Below, piece by piece: positions 2,315 to 14,354 of a DNA stretch of 64,000 nucleotides. The first letter of the stretch is position 1; the number at the start of each line of letters is the position of its first letter. The notes under the pieces are model-generated. The model had not been told where the DNA came from, did not search any database, and saw only the letters and a program-made list of their open reading frames with translations. This stretch comes from Polyangiaceae bacterium (GTDB lineage Bacteria; Myxococcota_A; Polyangia; Polyangiales; Polyangiaceae). The translations under genes were made by a program, and so were the position numbers. The DNA is taken from NCBI GenBank assembly GCA_050287085.1, contig JBNKBE010000012.1, positions 125,773-189,772 on the forward strand. Direction: 5' to 3'.

Positions 2315-3394
2315 ATGAGCCACGGCAATAGTAGCGCTGATCGCCCCATATTGAAGCTGAAGCGTGCAGCGGAGGTCTTCCTGCACTGGAAGGTCACGCA
2401 CTCGGAAAGCCTGCCCTACCTGCCCACGGAGATCAGCTTCGAAGTCACGAATCGCTGCAATTTCAAGTGCGACTTCTGTCCACAATCCTCCCCCCAGCAC
2501 TTCGAGCGCGTCCCCCCCGGGCAGCTGGAACCACCGGAGCTTCGGCGCATGTTGGGCAAATTGAGAGCCGCGGGCCTAGCCACCCGGACACTGCATTGGA
2601 CGCTCGATGGAGAGCCATTCATGCACAAGCGCTTTGAGCAGCTGATCCAGACCGCGGGAGAATACGACTTCACGACCCACCACTTCGCCACGAATGGCTA
2701 CTTCGTCAGCGCGGCACGTCTGCGGCAGTTTCCGGGTGGCAAGCATCGCTATTTTCTCACTCCGGACTTCTGCGCGGATCGCGAATATTTCGAGTCCGTA
2801 CGAGGCACGGCCGGCTCGTGGCAGCGTGTGCTCGACAATCTTCGATCGGTACTGAGCGCACCGGACCTCTCCCGTTTCCACCTGAAGATCACCGATATTG
2901 CGAGCTACAAGGAACAAGACGAAGAACTGCTACGGAAACGCTTCAAAGAGCTCAAGGCCCTGTTCCCAGACTCGCCGCGAGTCACTTTCCTGCAGCGCGC
3001 GTTCCACAATGCGACGGGCTTCTCTCAAACGGAGAACAAGGTTGATGTTGGCGTCGAGCGCTTGAAGCGGACTCCAAAGGCTAGCGTGCCCCGCGCCGGG
3101 TACCGGCTTTGCCCCTACCCGTGGTTCAGCTTCGTGGTCGCCAGCAACGGTGAAGTGGTGGCCTGCTGCCGCGATCTGGAACACAAGACGGTACTCGGCA
3201 ACTTGCTAACGCAGGAATTCGATGAAATATGGAACGGTGAGCCATACCAAGAACTGCGGCGCGCGCTCGTGAATCGTGACCCGGGGAAGATTGCGGCCTG
3301 CGCCCGGTGCGACATGCCCTACGATCCGTCCAAAGGAACGCTGCGACACCTCGCTCGCTCCGCCATTCACCGCATGCTATTGTTGGAGAAGTAG
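2315..3394 (+). CDS. Radical SAM protein with C-terminal SPASM/Twitch-type Fe-S domain
   Basis: CNFKCDFC (CxxxCxxC) motif, DGEPF, and C-terminal CPYPW...VVACC...LGNL...IWNG...CARC. Confidence 0.9.
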   Translation: MSHGNSSADRPILKLKRAAEVFLHWKVTHSESLPYLPTEISFEVTNRCNFKCDFCPQSSPQHFERVPPGQLEPPELRRMLGKLRAAGLATRTLHWTLDGEPFMHKRFEQLIQTAGEYDFTTHHFATNGYFVSAARLRQFPGGKHRYFLTPDFCADREYFESVRGTAGSWQRVLDNLRSVLSAPDLSRFHLKITDIASYKEQDEELLRKRFKELKALFPDSPRVTFLQRAFHNATGFSQTENKVDVGVERLKRTPKASVPRAGYRLCPYPWFSFVVASNGEVVACCRDLEHKTVLGNLLTQEFDEIWNGEPYQELRRALVNRDPGKIAACARCDMPYDPSKGTLRHLARSAIHRMLLLEK

Positions 3395-3400
3395 TTCGTC

Positions 3401-4255
3401 ATGCTGGACTCGATGCTCGCTCGACTCCGGGCGCATGCCCCCTGGTATGTGTTGACCGGTGCCGGGGTCAGCGTCGACAGTGGCATCCCAGCCTACCGCG
3501 ATGAGCAGGGAACGTGGCAGCACTCCGCGCCGATCACTTATGCGGAATTCACGCAAGAAGTGTCCGTCCGCCAGCGTTATTGGCTCCGCTCTAGCTTTGG
3601 CTTCAAACGCGTTGCTCGCGCCCTTCCCAACGAGGCACATCTCGCCCTGGCAGCCTTGGAACGCGCTGGCTTGGTAGCGGCGCTTGTCACGCAAAATGTC
3701 GACGGACTGCACAACGTCGCCGGCAGCCGGCACGCGATCGAACTGCACGGCAGCATTCACCACGTGATCTGCCTTGGCTGCGGTCAACGAAGCCCTCGCA
3801 GCTCGCTTCAGCGACGCTTGGAACAGCAAAATCCGTGGTTGACTACGCTCACCGAGCTCAGCGCCGCACCCGACGGCGATGCCAACGTCTGCGCGCCAGC
3901 TGATAAGTCCCTGGAGCTCGTCAACTGCGAGCGATGCGGCGGGCTACTCAAGCCCGACGTGGTCTTCTTTGGCGAAGGCGTCCCCAAGGCCCGCGTCAAA
4001 CACTGCTATGAGCTCCTGAACGCCGCACGCTCGGTACTCGTTATTGGTAGCTCGCTCGCAGTCTTCTCTGGGTACCGCTTTGTAAAACGAGGGGCAAGCT
4101 TGGGTCTGCCAGTGCTCGTCGTCAACCGAGGCACGACGCGCGCGGACGGCTTCGCCGCTGCCAAGTACGAATTCTCCTGCGGAGCGTTGCTCAACGCCCT
4201 AGCCGCTCGCACCGCAGCTGAAGCAACACCCCTTGAATCCCCATGCGAAACCTAG
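3401..4255 (+). CDS. cobB: NAD-dependent protein deacylase (sirtuin, class II/SIRT4-like)
   Basis: TGAGVSVDSGIPAYR, RQRYW, PNEAH, TQNVDGLH, ELHG, two CxxC pairs, LKPDVVFFGE, IGSSL. Confidence 0.9.
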   Translation: MLDSMLARLRAHAPWYVLTGAGVSVDSGIPAYRDEQGTWQHSAPITYAEFTQEVSVRQRYWLRSSFGFKRVARALPNEAHLALAALERAGLVAALVTQNVDGLHNVAGSRHAIELHGSIHHVICLGCGQRSPRSSLQRRLEQQNPWLTTLTELSAAPDGDANVCAPADKSLELVNCERCGGLLKPDVVFFGEGVPKARVKHCYELLNAARSVLVIGSSLAVFSGYRFVKRGASLGLPVLVVNRGTTRADGFAAAKYEFSCGALLNALAARTAAEATPLESPCET

Positions 4256-4333: not shown

Positions 4334-5127
4334 ATGACGGAAACGCTAACCAGCGCTCGCGCCGCCGCCTTTCTTCTTCGCTACGAGGCCGGCGGACGCT
4401 TCTTCCGGGAGCCCATTCTCCCTTCCACGGACCTGCGCGAACAAAACCTGAGCGGGATTGAGTTCCGTGGCGGCAGCTTCGCTGGCAGTGACCTGTTCGC
4501 GGCCAGTCTCTACCAGGCCACAATAACGGGCACCGACTTCAGTCATGCCAACCTTGTCTCCTGCGACCTGAGTCGGAGCCATATCTCTCTGAGCCACTTC
4601 GTAGGAGCTCACTTGAATCAAGCGCGGATCCGCTACAGCCAACTCTTGGAGGTGGAATGCGCGGGGCCAGCCTCGCCCATGCAGATCTGCGCCACAGCGC
4701 CCTAGAAGCCAACCTCGAAGGCGCCAACCTCACGCGCTGTCGAGCCGAAGGAGTGGACCTAAGTCGTTGTTTTGCATTCGGACTCAACGCCGAGCGGCTG
4801 CACGCTCCGAAGGCCGATCTGAGCTTCGCCAAGCTGCGTCGCTCCAACCTGCACGGAGCCACGCTTCGAGACTCATGCCTTTCAGCAACTGATCTGCGGG
4901 AAAGCCAGCTGTCGGAAGTTGATGCCACCGGAGGCGACTTCCGCGGGGCTCAGCTTCAAGGTGCAGATCTCAGTCGCTCTTCATTGCGTTATGCAGACTT
5001 GAGTGATGCTGACCTGACGGGCGCTCGATTGCTCGCCACCGATCTGCGTGGAGCCATTCTGAACAACACGTGCTTTGACCAGGTCGACCTATCGGAAGCC
5101 CTGCTCGGTGCGTTGGAAGCGGAGTGA
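4334..5127 (+). pseudogene. Pentapeptide-repeat protein split by a 1-nt frameshift near 4655-4670 (real lesion or sequencing error)
   Basis: A(D/N)LxxA-type repeats run through ORF 4334-4705 up to about 4660 and continue in the -1 frame ORF 4657-5127. Confidence 0.75.
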
Positions 5128-5466
5128 GATCTCAACGCCGGCGCCCTCGCGCGACGGCTCGAGCCGTCACGTCAGCGTATTTCTCGCAGGTATGAGTGCG
5201 GTCGAACCACACGGCTGAATTTCTGACTCGTGGGTTCTAGTCACCTACGCGAACGCCATCTGGGGGAGATTCTGGGTGGTTTCAAGGCAACGCGAAATCC
5301 GTTCCAGCACGGACCTGTACGCGAGGACTGAGCCTCCGCCTGCCCTCCAAACCCGGGCGAAGAGATCCTGAAGTCGCCCCTATGCGGTGTTTTTGGTAGG
5401 CGAAGCATTGAGTTGAGCGTCGCTCTCTAGGCCAGCGCATGCGCTCTTGAGATCCATTGTGACTCG

Positions 5467-5976
5467 TTGCCGGAATCGGGCATTCAATTGAAGTACCCCA
5501 CATCTCACCCCCGTTGGGGGCTCGCATTGCATATTGCAAGCAGCGCCCTACTGCTTCTTCTGCTGCTGTCGCGCCCAGCCGCCGCCGGCATCGAAGCACC
5601 GACGTGGCACGAAACCCAAGACGCCGATGCTGAAGCGGGCCACGTGACCCTGACCTGGTCCGGCACGGGCGATAGCTACGAGCTTCAACATGCAACCGAT
5701 GAACAATTCCTGCGCACCAGCCGCATAACAAGTACGGCAGATACGCAAAGTTTCGTCTCCGGACTCGGAAATGGAGCCCACTACTTCCGAATTCGCTCGA
5801 AGCAACGCGGGGTGCTATCGCCCTGGTCGCCTGTGCTTCGCTTCGACGTGGCTCACCCCTCGCTTGCCACAAGTCTTGGTCTGTTCGGAGCCGGCGCGCT
5901 CGTCTTCGTCGTCACCGTTGCCTTCACTCTGACCGAGGGCTTTGGAGCATCAAGACACGCAAGGCGGGCGACTTGA
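5467..5976 (+). CDS. Exported, membrane-anchored fibronectin type III-like protein
   Basis: Signal-like hydrophobic stretch ending AAA, FN3-like pattern (LTWS...YELQ...SGLGNGAHYFRIRS...SPWS) and a C-terminal TM helix. The stop overlaps the symporter start (TTGA). Start codon uncertain. Confidence 0.7.
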   Translation: MPESGIQLKYPTSHPRWGLALHIASSALLLLLLLSRPAAAGIEAPTWHETQDADAEAGHVTLTWSGTGDSYELQHATDEQFLRTSRITSTADTQSFVSGLGNGAHYFRIRSKQRGVLSPWSPVLRFDVAHPSLATSLGLFGAGALVFVVTVAFTLTEGFGASRHARRAT

Positions 5977-7412
5977 ACTCGTTCAGTTTGCCTGCTGGCC
6001 TCGCCTGGGGATTGCTCGCCGCGTTCTCCGTACTGTGGATTGGCCTCGGGCTGTTCTGGGGTAAACGCGCTCGGACGGCTGAAGGGCATATGCTGGCAGG
6101 GCGCAATGTGGGCCTCGCACTGGGAGCTGCCACGGCCGTGGCCACCTGGGTCACCTCCAACACCACCATGTTGGCGCCGCAGTTCGCCCTCCAACTCGGA
6201 ATCTGGGGCATGCTGGCATACTCCACCGCGTCCATCGGACTGTTTCTCTTTGCACCGATGGCACGTCGCATTCGAGCCCTGATGCCCAATGGCTACACCA
6301 GCGCGGAGTTCGTACGACTGCGTTACGGAAGAGCAGCTTGGGGCGTCTTCATGCTCATTTCGGTCTTCTACAGCCTCACATGGCTGATCAGTATGGCCAT
6401 GGCCGGTGGCCTGCTCCTGGAGGCCCTTGCCGGCATTCCCTACGTCGCGGGCATGAGCATCATCTTGGCCGTCTGCGTGGTCTACACGGTGGTCGGCGGC
6501 CTCTACGCCGTGATCGGAACCGACTTCATTCAGAGCCTGATCATTCTGGCTGGAGTTGTCATCGTCGGAGTGGCTGTGCTGGATCGAGTTCCCGTGGGTG
6601 TGATGTACGATCGCATCTCGGAAGAGCGTCCACTTCTACTGGACGCGATGTTCCCCGCGGCACTGATGGCCGTGTTCAACAATCTTCTATTCGGGCTGGG
6701 TGAAATCACGCACAGCAACGTTTGGTGGAGTCGTGCCTTCGCGATCCGCGACGGCCTAGGTCAGAAAGCGTACACACTAGCGGGGCTCATCTGGTTCCCC
6801 ATCCCTCTCGCCGCAGGTTTCATTGCGCTCGCCGCGCCGAGCTTGGGAGTGAACGTGGCACGCCCGGATATGGTCGCCCCCTTGGTCGCGGGGTCGTTGC
6901 TGGGCAAAGCCGGAGCCGTCCTAGTCTTCATTGTCGTGTTTTCTTCTCTGGCCTCTAGCATCGACAGCCTGCTTGCGGCGACCAGCGATTTGATCACGAA
7001 GGAGGTCGTCGCACGGATACGACCCCGGCCCGGCGATGCTAGCGAGAAGCGACAGGCCATTGTCACTACGCTCGCCCTAGGTCTCCTGTGCTGGCTCGCC
7101 TGCCTGCCGAAAGTCGGAACGCTAGCGTCCGTATTATTCTTCGCCGGTCCCCTCGTAGGTAGCACCATCTGGCCAATTCTGGCTGGGCTCTATCATCCGA
7201 AGGCCTCGGCTGCTGCCGCAACCAGCGCGATGGTTCTCGGCAGCGGCGCTGGGCTCTTCGCATACTTCACCCTCGGTTGGTATACCGCGTCCTTGATCGG
7301 CACCACTGTATCGATGGCAGTGGTGTTGGTCGGGCTTGGCAGCAGCGCCCGCACTTTCGACTTCTCAATTCTCGCGGGAAGTAGCCCAACCCGAAACACG
7401 GAGACCTCGTAG
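5973..7412 (+). CDS. Sodium:solute symporter family transporter (resembles the DUR3/urea-type subfamily)
   Basis: About 13 hydrophobic helices; LAGRNVG, EFVRLRYG, YTVVGGLYAVIGTDFIQ, SSLASSIDSLL. Confidence 0.9.
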   Translation: MNSFSLPAGLAWGLLAAFSVLWIGLGLFWGKRARTAEGHMLAGRNVGLALGAATAVATWVTSNTTMLAPQFALQLGIWGMLAYSTASIGLFLFAPMARRIRALMPNGYTSAEFVRLRYGRAAWGVFMLISVFYSLTWLISMAMAGGLLLEALAGIPYVAGMSIILAVCVVYTVVGGLYAVIGTDFIQSLIILAGVVIVGVAVLDRVPVGVMYDRISEERPLLLDAMFPAALMAVFNNLLFGLGEITHSNVWWSRAFAIRDGLGQKAYTLAGLIWFPIPLAAGFIALAAPSLGVNVARPDMVAPLVAGSLLGKAGAVLVFIVVFSSLASSIDSLLAATSDLITKEVVARIRPRPGDASEKRQAIVTTLALGLLCWLACLPKVGTLASVLFFAGPLVGSTIWPILAGLYHPKASAAAATSAMVLGSGAGLFAYFTLGWYTASLIGTTVSMAVVLVGLGSSARTFDFSILAGSSPTRNTETS

Positions 7413-7531
7413 TGTTTCCAAAAGTTGTGTTCGAGGCGCTGGTACTGCTCAGTCTCATACTGACGGGCAGCTCCGTACTCCTATTGACGGTGCTTTGGCT
7501 GCGCGACTTGCGAAAGGGGAAACTGTGGTAG
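7412..7531 (+). CDS. 39-aa single-TM small protein MFPKVVFEALVLLSLILTGSSVLLLTVLWLRDLRKGKLW (not in ORF track)
   Basis: GTG start overlaps the symporter TAG (TAGTG) with GGAG upstream. One hydrophobic helix and a basic/Trp tail; the stop overlaps the next gene's start. Confidence 0.75.
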   Translation: MFPKVVFEALVLLSLILTGSSVLLLTVLWLRDLRKGKLW

Positions 7532-8628
7532 AGGGGAAACAGCGCTTCGAGTCCAGGATCGCGCCCGTGGGGTTGTCCCATAACTCGAGCGGACAACAAC
7601 TCGCCGCCCGAGGTTTGGTCGAATTTCGCGATCAACGCCTGGACTTCATGCTCCTACAGAGCCTCGCCGGAAAGGCAGTGCTCAGCGCGCGCCTGTTCGA
7701 CGCTTCGCTGGTCGTGGCGTTATGCAAGTTTGCTGGGCTACTCGAAATGACGGAGATCGCATCTCATCATCCACTCGACGGCAAGCTTGTGATCACCGCC
7801 TTCTTTGAGGCTAGCACACGGACGCGACTCTCCTTTGAGAGTGCCGCCCTCCGGCTCGACGCCAAAGTCGTGAGCGTACCCGACGGCAAGGTCACCGGCA
7901 TCGCCAAAGGCGAAAGCTTGGCGGACATCGGCGAGATGTTCAACACCTATGGTGACCTTGTGGTCATGCGCCACCCAAAGAGCGAAGCCGTTTCTCAGCT
8001 ACAGACTCACCTACGACTCCCCCTCATCAACGCAGGCAACGGCACTGACGAACATCCCACGCAAGCGTTAGTTGACTGGTACACGCTGCTCAAGTGGCGC
8101 CCAGAGTTGTGCGCCAGTGAACTCCCCCGGAGCAAACGCATCAGGCTCGGCATCATTGGTGACCCCAGCACGATGAGAACGGTTCGCAGCTTTCTCTACC
8201 TGGCTTGCTGTTTTGCCCCCGCTATCTCGGAGCTGTACATCATATCGCCCAACAAGAGCGAACCGACGGGTGCTCTCAAACGCAGCCTAAGCAGCGCTGG
8301 CATTCCACTCACAACGACCGACAAGCTCGGCCCCATATTGCCTTCGCTCGACGTCGTCTACATCAACTCCATCGCGCTACTGGATGATGGCTATCATGAA
8401 TTGTCCGGGGACTACAACCTGAGCGCTAGTAGCCGTCTGAAGAAGGGTGCGGTCATTCTGCACCCCTTTGCCCGTCGTGGAGAACTTGCCGAGGACCTCG
8501 ACGGAACAGAGCACAATCTCTACTTCGCCCAGGCAGCTGGCGCCGTTTATCTGCGTCAGGCGCTCCTGATCTGTCTACTCGAACGCTTGACCGCTTTGCC
8601 TGGGGGCGTGCTCTACTTGGCAAAGTAG
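7525..8628 (+). CDS. Aspartate/ornithine carbamoyltransferase-family protein; PyrB-like but with an altered acceptor site
   Basis: FFEASTRTRLSF, KGESL, MRH, INAGNG..EHPTQ, GD....RTVRS, HPFAR. The ATCase RxQxER motif is replaced by YINSIAL. GTG 7525 chosen as start (AAAGGGG upstream). Confidence 0.85.
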   Translation: MVEGKQRFESRIAPVGLSHNSSGQQLAARGLVEFRDQRLDFMLLQSLAGKAVLSARLFDASLVVALCKFAGLLEMTEIASHHPLDGKLVITAFFEASTRTRLSFESAALRLDAKVVSVPDGKVTGIAKGESLADIGEMFNTYGDLVVMRHPKSEAVSQLQTHLRLPLINAGNGTDEHPTQALVDWYTLLKWRPELCASELPRSKRIRLGIIGDPSTMRTVRSFLYLACCFAPAISELYIISPNKSEPTGALKRSLSSAGIPLTTTDKLGPILPSLDVVYINSIALLDDGYHELSGDYNLSASSRLKKGAVILHPFARRGELAEDLDGTEHNLYFAQAAGAVYLRQALLICLLERLTALPGGVLYLAK

Positions 8629-8708
8629 AGCATCGGCCATACTACTCCGCGTGACCGACAACGCGACTTCGACAGTGCATCCAGAAGCTATGCGGGAATC
8701 GAACTAAC

Positions 8709-10673
8709 ATGTGTGGAATTACAGGTTTCTGGCAGGTAGGTGGCCTCGGGGCAAACGATCACGAGAACCTGACGCGTATGCTCGCTACACTGCACCATCG
8801 CGGTCCCGACGGCAGCGGGCGCTATCACGATGACGCGCTAGGCCTCGCCATTGGACACACTCGCCTCACCATCATCGATTTGCACACCGGCAAGCAGCCA
8901 TTGATCGCTCCGGATCGCGCCCAGGTGTTCTCAGCCAACGGCGAATTCTACAACTACAAGGAAATGCGAGCGGAGTTCGCTCGCAGCGGCGTGGACTTCG
9001 AAACCAAGAGCGACAGCGAGGTCGCTCTCTATGCGTATCGGCGCTACGGCGACGCGTTCTTCGAACACCTTCGTGGCGAGTTCGCAATCGCGCTATTCGA
9101 CTACCAGAAGCAAGAACTGCTGCTGGTCAGAGACCGCTTTGGTGTCAAACCACTCTACTACCATGCGACGGACGAGCGTTTGGTCTGGGGGTCCGAGGTA
9201 AAAGCCATTCTCGCTAACGACAAGGTGCCCAGAAGTCTCGACTTCAAGTCTGCGCTCAACCAAATGATGCAGACCATGGTGCCCGGCACAACAGCCTTTT
9301 CTGGTGTGCGAACACTGCTGCCTGGACACTTTCTACGAGTGCGCCGCGAGGGCCACCGACTGGTTGCGCGTGAGCATCGCTACTGGGATATGAACTTCCC
9401 TGACGCCGAGGCACACGAGGAAGCACTCGAACCGCAGGTCTACATCGACCGCACTGCTGAGCAATTGATCGATGCGATTCGAGTACGGCTCGAGGCGGAC
9501 GTTCCAGTGGGCTGCTACCTGTCGGGTGGCATCGACAGTTGCTCGATCCTGGGGCTCGCCACGGCGATGCAGCAATCGCCCGTCAAAGCCTTCACGATAA
9601 GCTTCGAGCACAAAGCCTACGACGAAAGCCATATCGCAACCGAGATGGCTCAGAAAGCCAAGGCGCAACAGGAGATTCTACGACTATCGGCAAGAGAGCT
9701 CTACGGACCGGCCTACGTTAAGACTCTATGGCATGCGGAGCGCACATTCTACAACACGCTGGGAGTTGCCAAATGGCACATGAGTCGGCGCGTTCGAGAA
9801 TGCGGCTACAAGGTCGTCGTAACCGGTGAAGGCTCCGACGAGATGTTTGCTGGCTACCCCTTCTTCAAGCGCGACTACTTCGCTCACGCGCCAGAGGCGA
9901 AGGGGGATGCCGCGGAGCTGGCACGGCGTATGGACGCCAGCAATACCCTCTTCAAGGGTGCGATCCTTGCTGAGGAAGCGACTCACCACGATGCTGCCGC
10001 GGATGTCATGGGGTTTACCCCTTCGTGGATTCAACCGTGGATCCTTACGCTGGCAGCAGCGCGACCGCTGCTTTCAAAGACAGCCACTGAAGCCCTCGCA
10101 GAGTACGATCCAGTCGCGGCCGTGTTCGAAACGCTCGACCCCGAACAGTTGCGAGGACGCCATCCGCTGGACAAGGTTCAGTATAGCTGGATCAAGACGA
10201 TGCTCGAAGGCCAGATCCTCACCTGGGGGGGTGATCGAGTCGATATGGCCAACTCGATGGAATCACGTCCAGCATTTCTCGATCATCACCTCGCGGAGAT
10301 GGCACGCAACATTCCACCGAAATACAGAATCCGGGGTGGCGTCGAAAAGTGGGTCTTGCGCGAAGCTATGCGTGGCGTGTTGCCCGAGGTGCTCTACAAG
10401 CGAGAGAAGTTCGCCTTCATGGCTCCGCCCGCACATACCGAGAAGCGGCAAAACAGTGTCTTGGACGACCTTATCGAAGAACGTCTCTCACACGCCGCAA
10501 TCGAGTCCCTGGGCTTCTTCGACGCGAGCGCAATCGATGCGTTTCTTGCAGCCCGCAAGCAGGAGACTGACCCGGCACGGCAGACTCGCAACGATATTCT
10601 ACTCAACCATACATTGGGCCTTCAGGTGCTGCATCAAGAATTTGTGGAGGCCCCGCGAGGCGCCGTGCTGTAG
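8709..10673 (+). CDS. asnB: Asparagine synthase-like glutamine-hydrolysing amidotransferase (class II GATase + ATP-pyrophosphatase domain)
   Basis: N-terminal MCGITG, HRGPD, RLTIIDL, NGEFYN, SDSEV, RDRFGVKPLYY, LSGGIDS, TGEGSDE. Confidence 0.9.
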   Translation: MCGITGFWQVGGLGANDHENLTRMLATLHHRGPDGSGRYHDDALGLAIGHTRLTIIDLHTGKQPLIAPDRAQVFSANGEFYNYKEMRAEFARSGVDFETKSDSEVALYAYRRYGDAFFEHLRGEFAIALFDYQKQELLLVRDRFGVKPLYYHATDERLVWGSEVKAILANDKVPRSLDFKSALNQMMQTMVPGTTAFSGVRTLLPGHFLRVRREGHRLVAREHRYWDMNFPDAEAHEEALEPQVYIDRTAEQLIDAIRVRLEADVPVGCYLSGGIDSCSILGLATAMQQSPVKAFTISFEHKAYDESHIATEMAQKAKAQQEILRLSARELYGPAYVKTLWHAERTFYNTLGVAKWHMSRRVRECGYKVVVTGEGSDEMFAGYPFFKRDYFAHAPEAKGDAAELARRMDASNTLFKGAILAEEATHHDAAADVMGFTPSWIQPWILTLAAARPLLSKTATEALAEYDPVAAVFETLDPEQLRGRHPLDKVQYSWIKTMLEGQILTWGGDRVDMANSMESRPAFLDHHLAEMARNIPPKYRIRGGVEKWVLREAMRGVLPEVLYKREKFAFMAPPAHTEKRQNSVLDDLIEERLSHAAIESLGFFDASAIDAFLAARKQETDPARQTRNDILLNHTLGLQVLHQEFVEAPRGAVL

Positions 10674-10784
10674 TCAGCATAGAGCAGCGCCAGACAGACG
10701 CGGTCCCGAGCGCGCTCCTTTCGCGTCAACGCGAGCCGCAACGTGATGCCGCGGCGTTTTTGAGATCGATTCCAAGACGAGACA

Positions 10785-12020
10785 ATGCTGAGCATAAACA
10801 TGAAGCGACTGCAGCGAGATCTCGAGGAGCTCGCTGAAATTGGCCGCCGCGGAGACACAGGCATCTACCGCATTGCGTTGAGCGACGAGGACATGCAGGC
10901 GCGTCAGTGGCTGCAAGACAGGTTGTCGGACGCAGGCCTCCACTGGGAAGTCGACCCAGCGGCGAATATCTGCGGCAAACTCAATTGCGTGCCAGGAGAG
11001 CCCAACGTCTTGACGGGCTCGCATCTCGACACCGTACCGAGCGCCGGACATTTGGACGGAGCCTTGGGCGTCGTTGCCGGACTTGAATGCTTGCGCACGC
11101 TCTCCGAACAAGGCTTTGTTGGCAAGCGCGGTATCGAAGTCGTCAGCTTCACCGATGAGGAGGGTCGCTTTGGCGGAATGCCAGGCTCGCAGGCGATCGC
11201 CGGAAAACTCACTCCCGAATCGGTCTACTCAGCAAAAGATCTCAGCGGCGTGAGTCTGGCTGAAGCGCTTGAAGCGCGCGGGTTCATCCCCCTTCACGTG
11301 TTGCGCGCAGCGCGAGGGCGCGGCAGCGTCCATTCCTTCGTGGAGCTCCACATCGAGCAAGGCCCTGTGCTCGACAGTCAGGGGCTAGACATTGGTATCG
11401 TCACGGGCATCGTCGGCCTCGTGAAGTGGAAGGTAACACTGACAGGACAAGCCAACCACGCGGGAACAACGCCTATGGCGCTACGACGTGACGCATTTCA
11501 AGGTCTGGCCGAGTTCTCTCTGAGTCTTGATTCGATTCTGCGGAAACACGGCGATCCGAACAGTGTTGCCACGATTGGCCAAGTTAGCGTCAAACCAGGC
11601 GCCCCCAACGTGGTTCCCGCTCGAGCTGAGTTCTCCCTTGAGATCCGCGACATCAACAGTGAAGCGCTGGAGCGCCTCGCCGCCGCCATACGGCAACATC
11701 TCCGCGAAATCGCAGACCGACGCCGGCTGAGACTCGACTTCGCGGTATTGAGTGAGATCGCGCCTGTGCCCTGTGCCGAATCGGTCATGCAGACAATTGT
11801 CAGCGTCGCGCACGAGCTCGGACTGCGCGGGCAGCGTATGCCGAGCGGGGCCGCCCACGACGCGCAGCAAATGGCTTCACTGGCTCCAACCGGGATGATC
11901 TTCATTCCGAGCAAGGACGGGCGCAGTCACTCTCCGGCTGAATGGTCAAGCTGGGAATCGATCGAGGCAGGGACCAATGTACTGCTGAATACTTTGGTCA
12001 GCCTGGCTGAAGCCCCCTAG
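10785..12020 (+). CDS. Zn-dependent M20 amidohydrolase (N-carbamoyl-L-amino-acid hydrolase / allantoate amidohydrolase family)
   Basis: GSHLDTVP, DGALGV, FTDEEGRFG, ELHIEQGP, NHAGTTPM, SGAAHDA, SHSPAEW. Confidence 0.92.
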   Translation: MLSINMKRLQRDLEELAEIGRRGDTGIYRIALSDEDMQARQWLQDRLSDAGLHWEVDPAANICGKLNCVPGEPNVLTGSHLDTVPSAGHLDGALGVVAGLECLRTLSEQGFVGKRGIEVVSFTDEEGRFGGMPGSQAIAGKLTPESVYSAKDLSGVSLAEALEARGFIPLHVLRAARGRGSVHSFVELHIEQGPVLDSQGLDIGIVTGIVGLVKWKVTLTGQANHAGTTPMALRRDAFQGLAEFSLSLDSILRKHGDPNSVATIGQVSVKPGAPNVVPARAEFSLEIRDINSEALERLAAAIRQHLREIADRRRLRLDFAVLSEIAPVPCAESVMQTIVSVAHELGLRGQRMPSGAAHDAQQMASLAPTGMIFIPSKDGRSHSPAEWSSWESIEAGTNVLLNTLVSLAEAP

Positions 12021-12150
12021 TGCCCCGACACCCAGGACCGTGAGGTCGACGGCCGGCCGCGGCACTCCCCGGCCTGGCTGCCATGGAAGCTGCTATACTC
12101 CTCCCCTATCGGGTCGCGCGCCGCAGCCGGCTGGCACCGACTTTCTCCTC

Positions 12151-12894
12151 ATGACTCAAAAGCAATTCGACAATATAGACCCGCTGCGCGACGCGTATCG
12201 GACCCACCTCACAGACGCCCATGAGGTGGAAATCGCGATTCGACAAGACCACGTCGCCCTGCTCTGTATCGACATGCAGTACTTGGACGCCGCTCGTGGG
12301 TGGGGGGTGTTCGCCCCTGGCCCGCAGGCGGTAGTACCGCCACAGGCCGAAGACTACTACTTCGAACGTCTCGAGAGCCTTGCATTGCGCAACGTGCGGC
12401 GATTGCAAGACGCATTCAGACGGCAACGTCTGGAAGTGATCCACACCCGCATTCGCTCTCTGACGCAGGATGGTCGCGATCGCGGCCCCGGACACAAGCG
12501 CCTGGGCCTACATGCCGCTCCAGGGTCAAAAGAAGCCGAGTTTCTCGAAGAAGTCGCTCCGCGGGGAGATGAAATCGTCCTCAACAAGACGGCCAGCGGA
12601 GTCTTCGTATCGACCAATCTGGAATACGTATTGCGAAATTTAGAAGTCAACGCCCTCTACATCGTTGGGGTCTACACCAACGAGTGTGTCGAAACCACCG
12701 CAAGAGACGCCAGCGACCTCGGCTTCTTCACAACCGTCATCGAAGACGCCTGTGCCACGGTAACACCTGAACTTCACAACTCATCCCTAAACACACTGCG
12801 GGATCGCTACGCACGCATCCTGTCCACTGATGCCGCCATTCGGGAGATCGAAGCGTATCGAGGCCGGGCAAGCGTGGCGCCACCGGGCCTTTGA
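12151..12894 (+). CDS. Cysteine hydrolase (isochorismatase-like amidase)
   Basis: D-K-C triad context: IDMQ, NKTASGVF, GVYTNECVETT..DASDLGF. ATG 12151 chosen as start. Confidence 0.88.
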   Translation: MTQKQFDNIDPLRDAYRTHLTDAHEVEIAIRQDHVALLCIDMQYLDAARGWGVFAPGPQAVVPPQAEDYYFERLESLALRNVRRLQDAFRRQRLEVIHTRIRSLTQDGRDRGPGHKRLGLHAAPGSKEAEFLEEVAPRGDEIVLNKTASGVFVSTNLEYVLRNLEVNALYIVGVYTNECVETTARDASDLGFFTTVIEDACATVTPELHNSSLNTLRDRYARILSTDAAIREIEAYRGRASVAPPGL

Positions 12895-12950
12895 CTCCGA
12901 GCATCGAATTGGGCCAGAAGCGACCCACATACTGACAACGACGCGGCTAT

Positions 12951-13033
12951 CAACAGCAGACTTACCAACGGCAGACTTACCAACGGCAGACTTACCAACG
13001 GCAGACTTACCAACGGCAGACTTACCAACGGCA
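12951..13033. repeat. Intergenic tandem repeat, 15-bp unit CAACGGCAGACTTAC, 5 copies plus a partial
   Basis: Read directly; the first copy has one mismatch (CAACAGC...). No spacers. Confidence 0.97.
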
Positions 13034-13043
13034 CAGTAAGGTG

Positions 13044-14354
13044 ATGAGTACCGGGCACGCACTTCGCTTCGCTTCACTGCTCGCGTCGATGACCATCGCA
13101 TGGCTCATGGTCGCCTGTGAACAACGTTCAGAGCAACTCGAAGAGCTAGGCATCGACGAGCAAGAAGCGCGGCGGATCCTGGCCGAGATCGCTGCAAGGA
13201 GCGCGAGCGCTAGCGCCGCGCTACCGCCCCCTCCCGCGCCACCGAAAGCGAAGATGGCAGGCAAAGAGGAGGCGCAAGCACCAGAACCGGCCAAGACCAG
13301 CAGTCAACGCTGGGTCGTCGATGAGATGGTGGATATTGCGCCGGCTGCACCCCTTGCCACCCATGCTCGAGGCGTATTCCTCCTGGATGCACAAAACCGA
13401 CTCTGGCTCGCGAAGTTGGGCTCCTTGCAACACCGCAAGAAGCCGGGCCCCTCACCCGTAGCGGCCATCCCCGACAACGACGTGCGCTTCGCGCTGGGAC
13501 GCGGTCCAAGCATTGCTGGCGACTACGCCTATTGGGTCCGCGAACACTACTTGCTGCGTCGCCCAATCGTTCCCCCTTATGAACCTCTCGAGGTGCTCGC
13601 AGACGATGCTCGCGTGGGAACCCGGGCAAGTGCTCTGAGTGCGTTTCTTGGGGGGAAGAAGAGAAACTGGGTGGTCTACGTCGCGTTCCCGCCGACCCGA
13701 GGGGGACCGCTTCGAGCCAAGCTCTGGCATGGCAACGATCGACATCTGGTCCTGACGCCAGATGGCAGTTCGACCCTCAACGCGCAGCTTGTCCTTGCTG
13801 GCAATGAAGCGCGTGTCTTCTCCCTAGAAGCTCGCACCGGCATGAGCTCGGTTCACTCACGCAGGGTGGTTGCCACTCATGATCTGCCAGTGCTGGGTGA
13901 AGACCAAGTAGTTTGGGTCGGCGGAAGTGCCAACGGCCTCAGCGAACTCCGTGCGTTTGGATCCAGCAGCCAAGATGTATTCGGACTGCTGCCGATCGAA
14001 AAGGACATGGCCCATTTCGGCATGGCTGTCTTGTCCTTCAACCTGACCGAACCCCCAGCCCCGGCGGAAATCGCATGGGCCGATTTTCAGAACGGTTTGG
14101 ATCCAGCGCCTGTGGATGCCGCCCGTGTGTGCGGTACGCAGAGCGCCCTGTACGCTCGTCCGCAGACGGCAGAGCCCCACGGCCCTCAAGAGCTGGTGCT
14201 AGCCGAGCTGAAGAATGGAAGACCCGAGCCCGGAATAGTGCTCGCCCGCTCCAAGGCCTTCTACGACTTGTCGCTGGTATCGCTCAAGGGCGGCGCGCTC
14301 TTGGCCTACGTCGCCGACCACCGCTCCTGGGCTCAGACGGTCCGCTGCAGATAG
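13044..14354 (+). CDS. Hypothetical lipoprotein
   Basis: Signal peptide with lipobox-like MVAC, Pro/Ala-rich linker and a beta-rich C-terminal domain. Confidence 0.7.
   Translation: MSTGHALRFASLLASMTIAWLMVACEQRSEQLEELGIDEQEARRILAEIAARSASASAALPPPPAPPKAKMAGKEEAQAPEPAKTSSQRWVVDEMVDIAPAAPLATHARGVFLLDAQNRLWLAKLGSLQHRKKPGPSPVAAIPDNDVRFALGRGPSIAGDYAYWVREHYLLRRPIVPPYEPLEVLADDARVGTRASALSAFLGGKKRNWVVYVAFPPTRGGPLRAKLWHGNDRHLVLTPDGSSTLNAQLVLAGNEARVFSLEARTGMSSVHSRRVVATHDLPVLGEDQVVWVGGSANGLSELRAFGSSSQDVFGLLPIEKDMAHFGMAVLSFNLTEPPAPAEIAWADFQNGLDPAPVDAARVCGTQSALYARPQTAEPHGPQELVLAELKNGRPEPGIVLARSKAFYDLSLVSLKGGALLAYVADHRSWAQTVRCR

Follow-up and report, generated by a model that had tools for sequence, protein, structure and literature searches.

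A neutral glutamine-derived solute, N-acetylglutaminylglutamine amide (NAGGN), is made by a system in which asnO and ngg occur together with a peptidase gene and often with a MarR regulator. Another compound, the osmolyte N-carbamoyl-L-glutamine 1-amide (CGA), is known from Ectothiorhodospira marismortui, a synonym of E. mobilis (PMC1224877), of which DSM 4180 is given as the type strain (PMC7824335), and has been described from this single organism only (PMC3857566). A stretch of 64,000 nucleotides from a Polyangiaceae bacterium (GenBank assembly GCA_050287085.1, contig JBNKBE010000012.1, positions 125,773 to 189,772; here the window) was found to carry seven consecutive genes for a fibronectin type III (FN3)-fold membrane protein, a sodium:solute symporter (SSS), a 39-aa membrane peptide, a carbamoyltransferase (CT) related to aspartate carbamoyltransferase (ATCase), an AsnB-type amidotransferase, an M20 hydrolase and an isochorismatase-family cysteine hydrolase (ISO). 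CGA carries exactly the two groups that the CT and AsnB enzyme types add, and the gene set is read here, with moderate confidence, as a module for CGA synthesis, uptake and recycling.

The block itself is not new. A marine group of pseudo-ATCases with HPLA and AIA/AIS/SIA motifs, in synteny with a Na+ symporter, an asparagine-enzyme gene and a carbamoylase, was delineated in Barba 2013 (PMC4016543), where it has no assigned function and its AsnB-type neighbour is called a putative asparaginase. The window family has both the motifs and the synteny, and the gene set is a member of that block. For the marine group, the available part of PMC4016543 mentions neither the FN3 protein, the peptide, the cysteine hydrolase nor osmolytes, and the number that its table gives to the motif set does not agree with that of the subgroup in the running text. 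In marine Synechococcus and Prochlorococcus an asnB-pyrB2-pydC cluster, interpreted as alternative pyrimidine synthesis or nitrogen recycling, tracks nitrogen- and phosphorus-depleted waters (Doré 2023, PMC10119275). Judged by gene names and order, this is very probably the same module, as the order CT-AsnB-M20 was seen in picocyanobacterial loci, which differ from the window in having a DUF1028 gene after M20 in place of the cysteine hydrolase. The initial annotation knew of no characterized cluster for CGA; indeed, no gene assignment for the compound was found in the literature searched, most subscription journals lying outside its coverage, but the block had already been noted in these two papers, without the function proposed here. 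Of PMC1224877, PMC3857566, PMC7824335, PMC4016543, PMC10119275, PMC3694870, PMC2754498 and PMC8092127 a part was available, and what is taken from them refers to that part; in its part, PMC8092127 contains no mention of the module.

In the proposed pathway the CT would carbamoylate the alpha-amino group of L-glutamine from carbamoyl phosphate, after which the AsnB-type enzyme would adenylate the alpha-carboxylate and amidate it with glutamine-derived ammonia. The two enzyme types are assigned from the protein families, and glutamine as the substrate and the order of carbamoylation before amidation are our proposal. The SSS, the peptide and the FN3 protein, grouped on the basis of co-occurrence and a structural model, would form a Na+ symporter that recaptures or scavenges what is presumed to be the product. 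Recycling would be achieved by ISO stripping the 1-amide and M20 the carbamoyl group to give glutamine, ammonia and CO2, with the substrates and the order again being putative.

The CT scored below the cut-offs of the PyrB models (TIGR00670, 173.8 vs 236.95 bits; PRK00856, 171 vs 263), and a canonical pyrB and an argF-type gene were present separately in 6/6 genomes examined. Its predicted structure has the ATCase fold (pLDDT 90, TM ~0.85 by target). The carbamoyl-phosphate motifs STRT and HPTQ are present together with the equivalents of K84 and R105, which we take to be the positions in E. coli ATCase numbering. Residues expected at the carbamoyl-phosphate and alpha-carboxylate sites are kept in nearly all of 284 CT sequences (R99 in 280, K128 in 280, R149 in 283, H177 in 282 and R218 in 284). 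The Arg and Gln of the ATCase RxQ motif bind the beta-carboxylate of aspartate. This motif is absent from the CT and is replaced with N-[SA]-I-[AS], the Asn being found in 279/284 sequences, the R position being occupied by A (167/284) or S (108/284) and the Q position by A (234/284) or S (36/284). The HP[LG]P motif is likewise replaced with HP[LF]A, with L at the L position in 275/284; the window CT itself has SIA and HPFA. RxQ is described as ATCase-specific (PMC4016543), and on these sequence grounds the CT is judged not to be a PyrB. Small residues at the RxQ site would fit a longer uncharged side chain, for example that of glutamine. Carbamate kinase (arcC) was not found in 5/5 genomes by a search whose controls were positive in 2/14, and the synthetic direction of the CT is therefore favoured. 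In a representative tree built with a quick method, the CT enzymes group together in a single clade (24 rows, support 100). In a derived CT clade (alignment A2; 13 representatives, support 100) neither the STRT motif nor the K84 equivalent is retained, and three of its loci (L164, L165 and L167) have no AsnB beside the CT; its members are possibly pseudo-enzymes or binding proteins.

The AsnB-type protein passed the cut-off of TIGR01536 but not those of asparagine synthase B (PRK09431, 260.2 vs 499) or of the NAGGN amidotransferase (TIGR03104, 301.7 vs 570.1). The N-terminal nucleophile (Ntn) glutaminase Cys and the NG, SGGxDS and GEGxDE motifs are invariant or nearly so in 243 sequences, and motifs specific to the family in the synthetase domain are invariant in 243/243 full-length copies, which suggests a single substrate throughout the family, on both of its main branches. 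In 4/6 genomes the module AsnB is the sole full-length AsnB, and this at first favours a role in asparagine supply. However, of five genomes three have gatB but no asnS, and asnS and asnA occur together in the remaining two, so that the enzyme is not needed for protein-synthesis asparagine in 5/5. Asparagine synthesis is therefore unlikely to be the role of the amidotransferase.

The initial annotation asked whether known producers of CGA might lack the cluster, and the type strain of the producer was found to have all four enzymes. Its locus (L263, E. mobilis DSM 4180) reads MarR-M20-ISO-CT-AsnB between a sucrose synthase and a PfkB kinase gene, with identities to the window enzymes of 52% (M20), 67% (ISO), 50% (CT) and 52% (AsnB). 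In the draft genome of DSM 4180 the ATCase/OTCase family comprises argF, pyrB and the module CT only, and no match to a CmcH/NodU carbamoyltransferase was found there. By elimination, the module CT would be the natural source of the carbamoyl group of CGA in this strain, insofar as the draft, which may be incomplete, represents the genome. The CT occurs in 11/11 genomes of Ectothiorhodospira, in one of them split in two pieces.

For the distribution of the module, four CT-based scans of named genomes gave 77, 251, at least 598 and 512 matching stretches, of which no more than 80 were retained from each scan; the resulting 312 loci, less 23 duplicates, left 289 distinct loci, all chosen through the CT. 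Among these, AsnB was found in 272, SSS in 247, FN3 in 206, M20 in 186 and ISO in 117, many of the misses being due to contig ends, and a MarR regulator was found in 105, in 67 of them within 600 bp. The neighbourhood is thus conserved as a unit, the lack of which the initial annotation had listed as a refutation, with the CT-AsnB pair as its core and M20 and ISO as accessory members. The FN3-SSS-peptide block usually lies 5' of CT-AsnB, and since the order FN3-SSS-peptide-CT-AsnB recurs in many phyla the seven-gene set is not a chance arrangement. The placement of M20 and ISO varies (downstream, inverted, upstream or inserted), ISO nearly always adjoining M20. Of the system for making, importing and breaking down an osmolyte that had been envisaged, the synthetic pair has held up as conserved, but the breakdown arm is dispensable.

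Carriers by record title include Rhodopirellula, Stieleria, Enhygromyxa, Kangiella, Idiomarina, Pseudoalteromonas, Kordiimonas, Thioalkalivibrio, Ectothiorhodospira, Nitrosomonas halophila, Synechococcus, Prochlorococcus and Leptospiraceae, most of which we take to be marine or salt-lake taxa. Occurrence is patchy: the CT was found in 2/18 genomes of the window's own genus, in 2/201 of a phylum sample and in 14/151 genomes of the R. baltica family, and a plasmid collection gave no CT match at 1e-50. The window CT and AsnB cluster with Myxococcota and Planctomycetota copies. Both trees have two deep branches, with Rhodopirellula baltica on the window's branch and the producer E. mobilis on the other; the window, R. 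baltica, Kangiella and Synechococcus CT copies form one clade (support 100). The MarR protein could be assigned to no named osmoregulator, and the window's own genome yielded no homolog of it. Several other arrangements were noted. A P-II gene lies directly 5' of the module in 7 loci, mostly of Leptospiraceae (e.g. L200:5163-5522), a convergent glutamine synthetase gene lies downstream in 7 Thioalkalivibrio loci (e.g. L274:11422-12864), and 23 loci of Thioalkalivibrio and Pseudoalteromonas have a porin-like gene in the vicinity (L287:1784-3058, L129:11211-12494), with one weak Porin_O_P match. A CT with no adjoining AsnB was seen in Thiorhodospira sibirica and Jatrophihabitans (L264, L071). 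Copies titled as from an archaeon and a Bifidobacterium (L165, L312) are very near gammaproteobacterial ones, and mis-binning or mis-assembly is possible.

The symporter was below the cut-off of TIGR00813, and its best match in the Protein Data Bank (PDB) was the urea transporter DUR3 (E 1.7e-28), other SSS proteins matching at 1.8e-8 or weaker; the likeness to DUR3 fits a ureido-bearing substrate. Neither the FN3 protein nor the 39-aa peptide had a family match in Pfam or NCBIfam. Nevertheless, the model of the former (pLDDT 89), an FN3 sandwich between two helices, matched FN3 domains in Foldseek, in agreement with the initial call, and the Atlas clusters resembling it are named FN3 or hypothetical. 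FN3 never occurred without SSS (0/206 loci), and 41 SSS loci had no detected FN3. A peptide of the 39-aa type was present in 246/246 loci with SSS directly 5' of the CT, always ending in W, and W39 was invariant in 50 aligned sequences. A three-chain complex model gave a score of 0.79 for FN3-SSS against 0.00 for the best control, a score which covers the FN3 protein and not the peptide; agreement between the model runs covered at least 95% of contacts, with partner pLDDT of at least 80. The mark used for such models is reached by 116/157 solved complexes and 2/215 mismatched pairs, counts which are only roughly valid here. The model supports binding of the FN3 protein to the symporter, and SSS, peptide and FN3 protein together make a probable three-part transporter. 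To our knowledge, an FN3 subunit has no counterpart among SSS transporters.

M20 scored 412 on TIGR01879 (cut-off 204) and stayed below the cut-off of ErtE; against the N-carbamyl-glutamate hydrolase model it reached 401 bits, where the cut-off is 520. Its best PDB match was the L-carbamoylase 3n5f (E 1.5e-96). The metal-site motifs are kept in 175 sequences, and R288, which we take to be the Arg that binds a free carboxylate, is kept in 174/175; the amide should therefore come off before the carbamoyl group. The Asp-Lys-Cys triad of ISO was invariant in 110/110 sequences, and M20 is present without ISO in a large number of carriers. In 13 picocyanobacterial loci without ISO the DUF1028 gene lies directly 3' of M20 (L191:12404-13090, L175, L179, L235 and others), and its product may be a candidate amidase that replaces ISO in these organisms.

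A response to salt was sought in published data. In Synechococcus WH8102 a mild salt shock changed 102 genes, 82 of them in the same direction as the genes for betaine and glucosylglycerol (PMC2874817, complete supplementary table S10). SYNW2454, a 'putative aspartate carbamoyltransferase', rose by 0.78 log2 (q=0) as the 4th of the 82 induced genes in order of fold change, SYNW2453, a 'putative asparagine synthetase', by 0.62 log2 (q=0) as the 6th, and SYNW2451 by 0.20; these genes were equated with the module by annotation, gene order and the WH8102 listing of Barba 2013, not by sequence. In R. baltica SH1 the module pseudo-ATCase is RB13301 (PMC4016543). The salt response suggested at the outset was thus seen for the two synthesis genes of WH8102 but not for R. 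baltica, whose gene is not listed in the salt microarray. Among Pirellulaceae the CT was found in 12/79 nqrA-positive vs 2/72 nqrA-negative genomes (Fisher p 0.01), a comparison in which kin are not independent and nqrA is a mere proxy. Among 41 relatives, both CT carriers had nqrA (11/41) and SDMT (9/41), too few to count. A methyltransferase cluster was present in 17/289 loci, 13 of which read as SDMT-like betaine genes and 4 were set aside, and a BCCT gene adjoins the module in 4 loci. The window's own genome has nqrA and, on contig C40, an SDMT gene. This gene lies within three adjacent genes (G000:C40:9214-12592) reading as glycine/sarcosine methyltransferase, SDMT and BCCT transporter, apparently a betaine cluster, the SDMT match alone having been tested.

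Several points weigh against assigning the module to CGA. The pathway is predicted from the genes, and no computed result discriminates between Gln and other possible amino acid acceptors, Glu and Asn among them. Hundreds of genomes have the module, yet CGA is described from one organism. The window CT and AsnB share 50% and 52% identity with those of the producer, which lies on the other main branch. The Ectothiorhodospira loci have no transporter genes, and elsewhere in DSM 4180 there is a NAGGN-type amidotransferase (L337:778-2550, G006; TIGR03104, 985 vs 570 bits) that could carry out the amidation; the ngg GNAT-ligase (TIGR03103) was matched in 0/5 genomes including DSM 4180, in a search without a working control, and none lies beside the module genes. 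The window locus has no MarR regulator. In WH8102 induction was less than 2-fold, nitrate, nitrite and cyanate genes were also up, and SYNW2452 and SYNW2455 are not in the salt-shock list (PMC2874817). NMR of R. baltica across salinities gave glutamate, sucrose, mannosylglucosylglycerate (MGG) and trehalose only, CGA being unreported in the available part of PMC3694870; solutes were identified there against known shifts, so that a minor one could escape. This result weighs on the window because R. baltica is on its branch. In the part of PMC2754498 available, the supplements of the R. baltica salt microarray contain no carbamoyl or asparagine gene; they include RB13294 and RB13300, the tags next to RB13301, but not RB13301 itself. 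Finally, in the phylum sample the sole other CT carrier lacks nqrA, and co-distribution with nqrA is there uninformative or slightly unfavourable.

It is conceivable, if unlikely, that the chemistry is as proposed but the product differs, being the amide of another N-carbamoyl amino acid (Glu, Asn or other), or that it is kept at a low level to store nitrogen or to be exchanged, and not as an osmolyte; this would apply at least to the Myxococcota/Planctomycetota branch, on which the window lies. The failure of R. baltica NMR to report CGA, the two deep branches of the CT and AsnB trees, the P-II and glutamine synthetase neighbours (7 loci each), the occurrence of the picocyanobacterial cluster in depleted waters and the score of M20 on the N-carbamyl-glutamate hydrolase model all speak for it. 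Still, the AsnB and CT substrate-site motifs are common to both branches, the sole known doubly capped compound comes from a carrier of the module, and the WH8102 genes are induced by salt.

The remaining explanations fare worse. In a catabolic route a ureido compound would be imported by the DUR3-like symporter and cleaved phosphorolytically by the CT in the manner of ureidoglycine carbamoyltransferase, the hydrolases and AsnB releasing and recapturing nitrogen. This is improbable: the failure to find a carbamate kinase in 5/5 genomes, the ATP-consuming AsnB as the constant partner with dispensable hydrolases, the retention of CT-AsnB without a transporter in Ectothiorhodospira, and an M20 that would duplicate the decarbamoylation outweigh the nearness of SSS to DUR3, the two hydrolases in the set and the catabolic role of a sister pseudo-ATCase, Rxyl_2847 (PMC4016543). 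Very improbable is the reading of the database annotation, in which the CT is one more aspartate carbamoyltransferase and the AsnB an ordinary asparagine synthetase; the 'alternative pyrimidine pathway' suggested in Doré 2023 (PMC10119275) belongs here too. The ATCase fold, the database names, the TIGR01536 match and the frequent lack of another full-length AsnB agree with it. The pyrimidine reading is disfavoured because the RxQ motif is missing and pyrB is separate; moreover, the CT falls below the PyrB cut-offs, asparagine supply does not call for the module AsnB in 5/5 genomes, and pyrC and pyrD are not among the conserved neighbours. The initial annotation had itself named an aspartate-specific CT and an AsnB that merely makes asparagine as outcomes that would speak against it; the RxQ motif is absent from the CT, and in the five genomes examined the AsnB is not required for asparagine. 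The CGA module remains the preferred reading.

The coordinates of its genes are collected in Table 1.

Table 1 Genes of the proposed CGA module in the window.
Feature	Position	Strand	Pfam match	Remarks
FN3-fold protein	5467..5976	+		N-terminal hydrophobic helix, C-terminal membrane helix; probable symporter accessory subunit
SSS sodium:solute symporter	5973..7412	+	SSF (PF00474)	DUR3-nearest; probable product importer
39-aa single-helix membrane peptide, Trp-terminated	7412..7531	+		Probable small symporter subunit
Pseudo-ATCase carbamoyltransferase, 367 aa	7525..8628	+	OTCace_N/OTCace (PF02729/PF00185)	Proposed L-glutamine N-carbamoyltransferase
AsnB-type glutamine-dependent amidotransferase, 654 aa	8709..10673	+	GATase_7 + Asn_synthase	Proposed alpha-carboxylate amidation
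M20 carbamoylase-type hydrolase	10785..12020	+	Peptidase_M20	TIGR01879, PRK09290.1-5 above cut-off
Isochorismatase-family cysteine hydrolase (ISO)	12151..12894	+	Isochorismatase (PF00857)	Longest ORF from GTG 12040; proposed amidase

The description of seven co-oriented genes with the first four overlapping was confirmed: all 7/7 open reading frames (ORFs) in the ORF listing are intact and free of internal stops, and each gene is single-copy in its own genome. The stop of the FN3 gene overlaps the TTG start of SSS at 5973-5976, base 7412 is common to the SSS stop and the GTG start of the peptide, and the peptide, with its stop at 7529-7531, overlaps the GTG of the CT. The gaps ahead of AsnB and M20 are 80 and 111 bp, and that ahead of the cysteine hydrolase is 19 or 130 bp depending on the start. 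The CT most likely starts at 7525, as an identical 367-aa protein is present in the protein collection. For the cysteine hydrolase ATG 12151 is a more probable start than GTG 12040, as most homolog alignments span ~230 aa. Scans of 5100-13100 were uninformative: 0 sites resembling promoters were found where shuffled sequence gave a mean of 2.0, and 5 resembling terminators against a shuffle mean of 6.6. A search for RNA runs with a Thioalkalivibrio locus yielded a single run at share 0.05, which does not count as evidence. Downstream, a 15-bp tandem repeat (12951-13033, 5.5 copies, 98% matches) separates the cysteine hydrolase gene from an ORF at 13041-14354 (437 aa) with no match in Pfam or NCBIfam. 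Just upstream lie two overlapping pentapeptide-repeat ORFs in different frames (4334-4705 and 4657-5127), possibly a single frameshifted gene, and at 2315-4255 a radical SAM/SPASM gene closely followed by one for a Sir2-family deacylase.

The analysis provides a two-gene hypothesis for an osmolyte that was described in 1991 and has no gene assignment in the literature searched. If it is correct, hundreds of 'pyrB' and 'asnB' genes would be re-annotated, the transcarbamoylase family would gain a new acceptor, and a four-nitrogen solute would be predicted in abundant marine bacteria, with bearing on salt adaptation and on dissolved organic nitrogen. The module further suggests an SSS transporter equipped with a pair of accessory subunits. 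More tentatively, and with somewhat less than even confidence, it is suggested that this is the missing CGA pathway and that CGA is a widespread, overlooked marine metabolite of Synechococcus, some Prochlorococcus, planctomycetes, myxobacteria and many Gammaproteobacteria, exchanged through the three-part DUR3-like symporter.

With PyrB the module CT shares the fold, the carbamoyl-phosphate site and the arginine for the alpha-carboxylate, and it differs in the replaced RxQ, the change of HPLP to HP[LF]A, a ~40-aa N-terminal extension and the lack of a pyrimidine context. Of the carbamate kinase and purine-catabolism context of the ureidoglycine carbamoyltransferase (Rxyl_2847 type), arcC was found in 0/5 genomes, and no such genes are among the conserved neighbours of the module. 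The likeness to the NAGGN pathway lies in an N-terminal cap combined with AsnB-type amidation of the C-terminus, a hydrolase encoded nearby and, frequently, a MarR regulator. The cap, however, would be a carbamoyl group introduced by a transcarbamoylase in the module and is an acetyl group introduced by a GNAT-ligase in NAGGN, and the module has a dedicated symporter and an AsnB below the TIGR03104 cut-off. Thus, the module works like the NAGGN pathway and is not a member of it.

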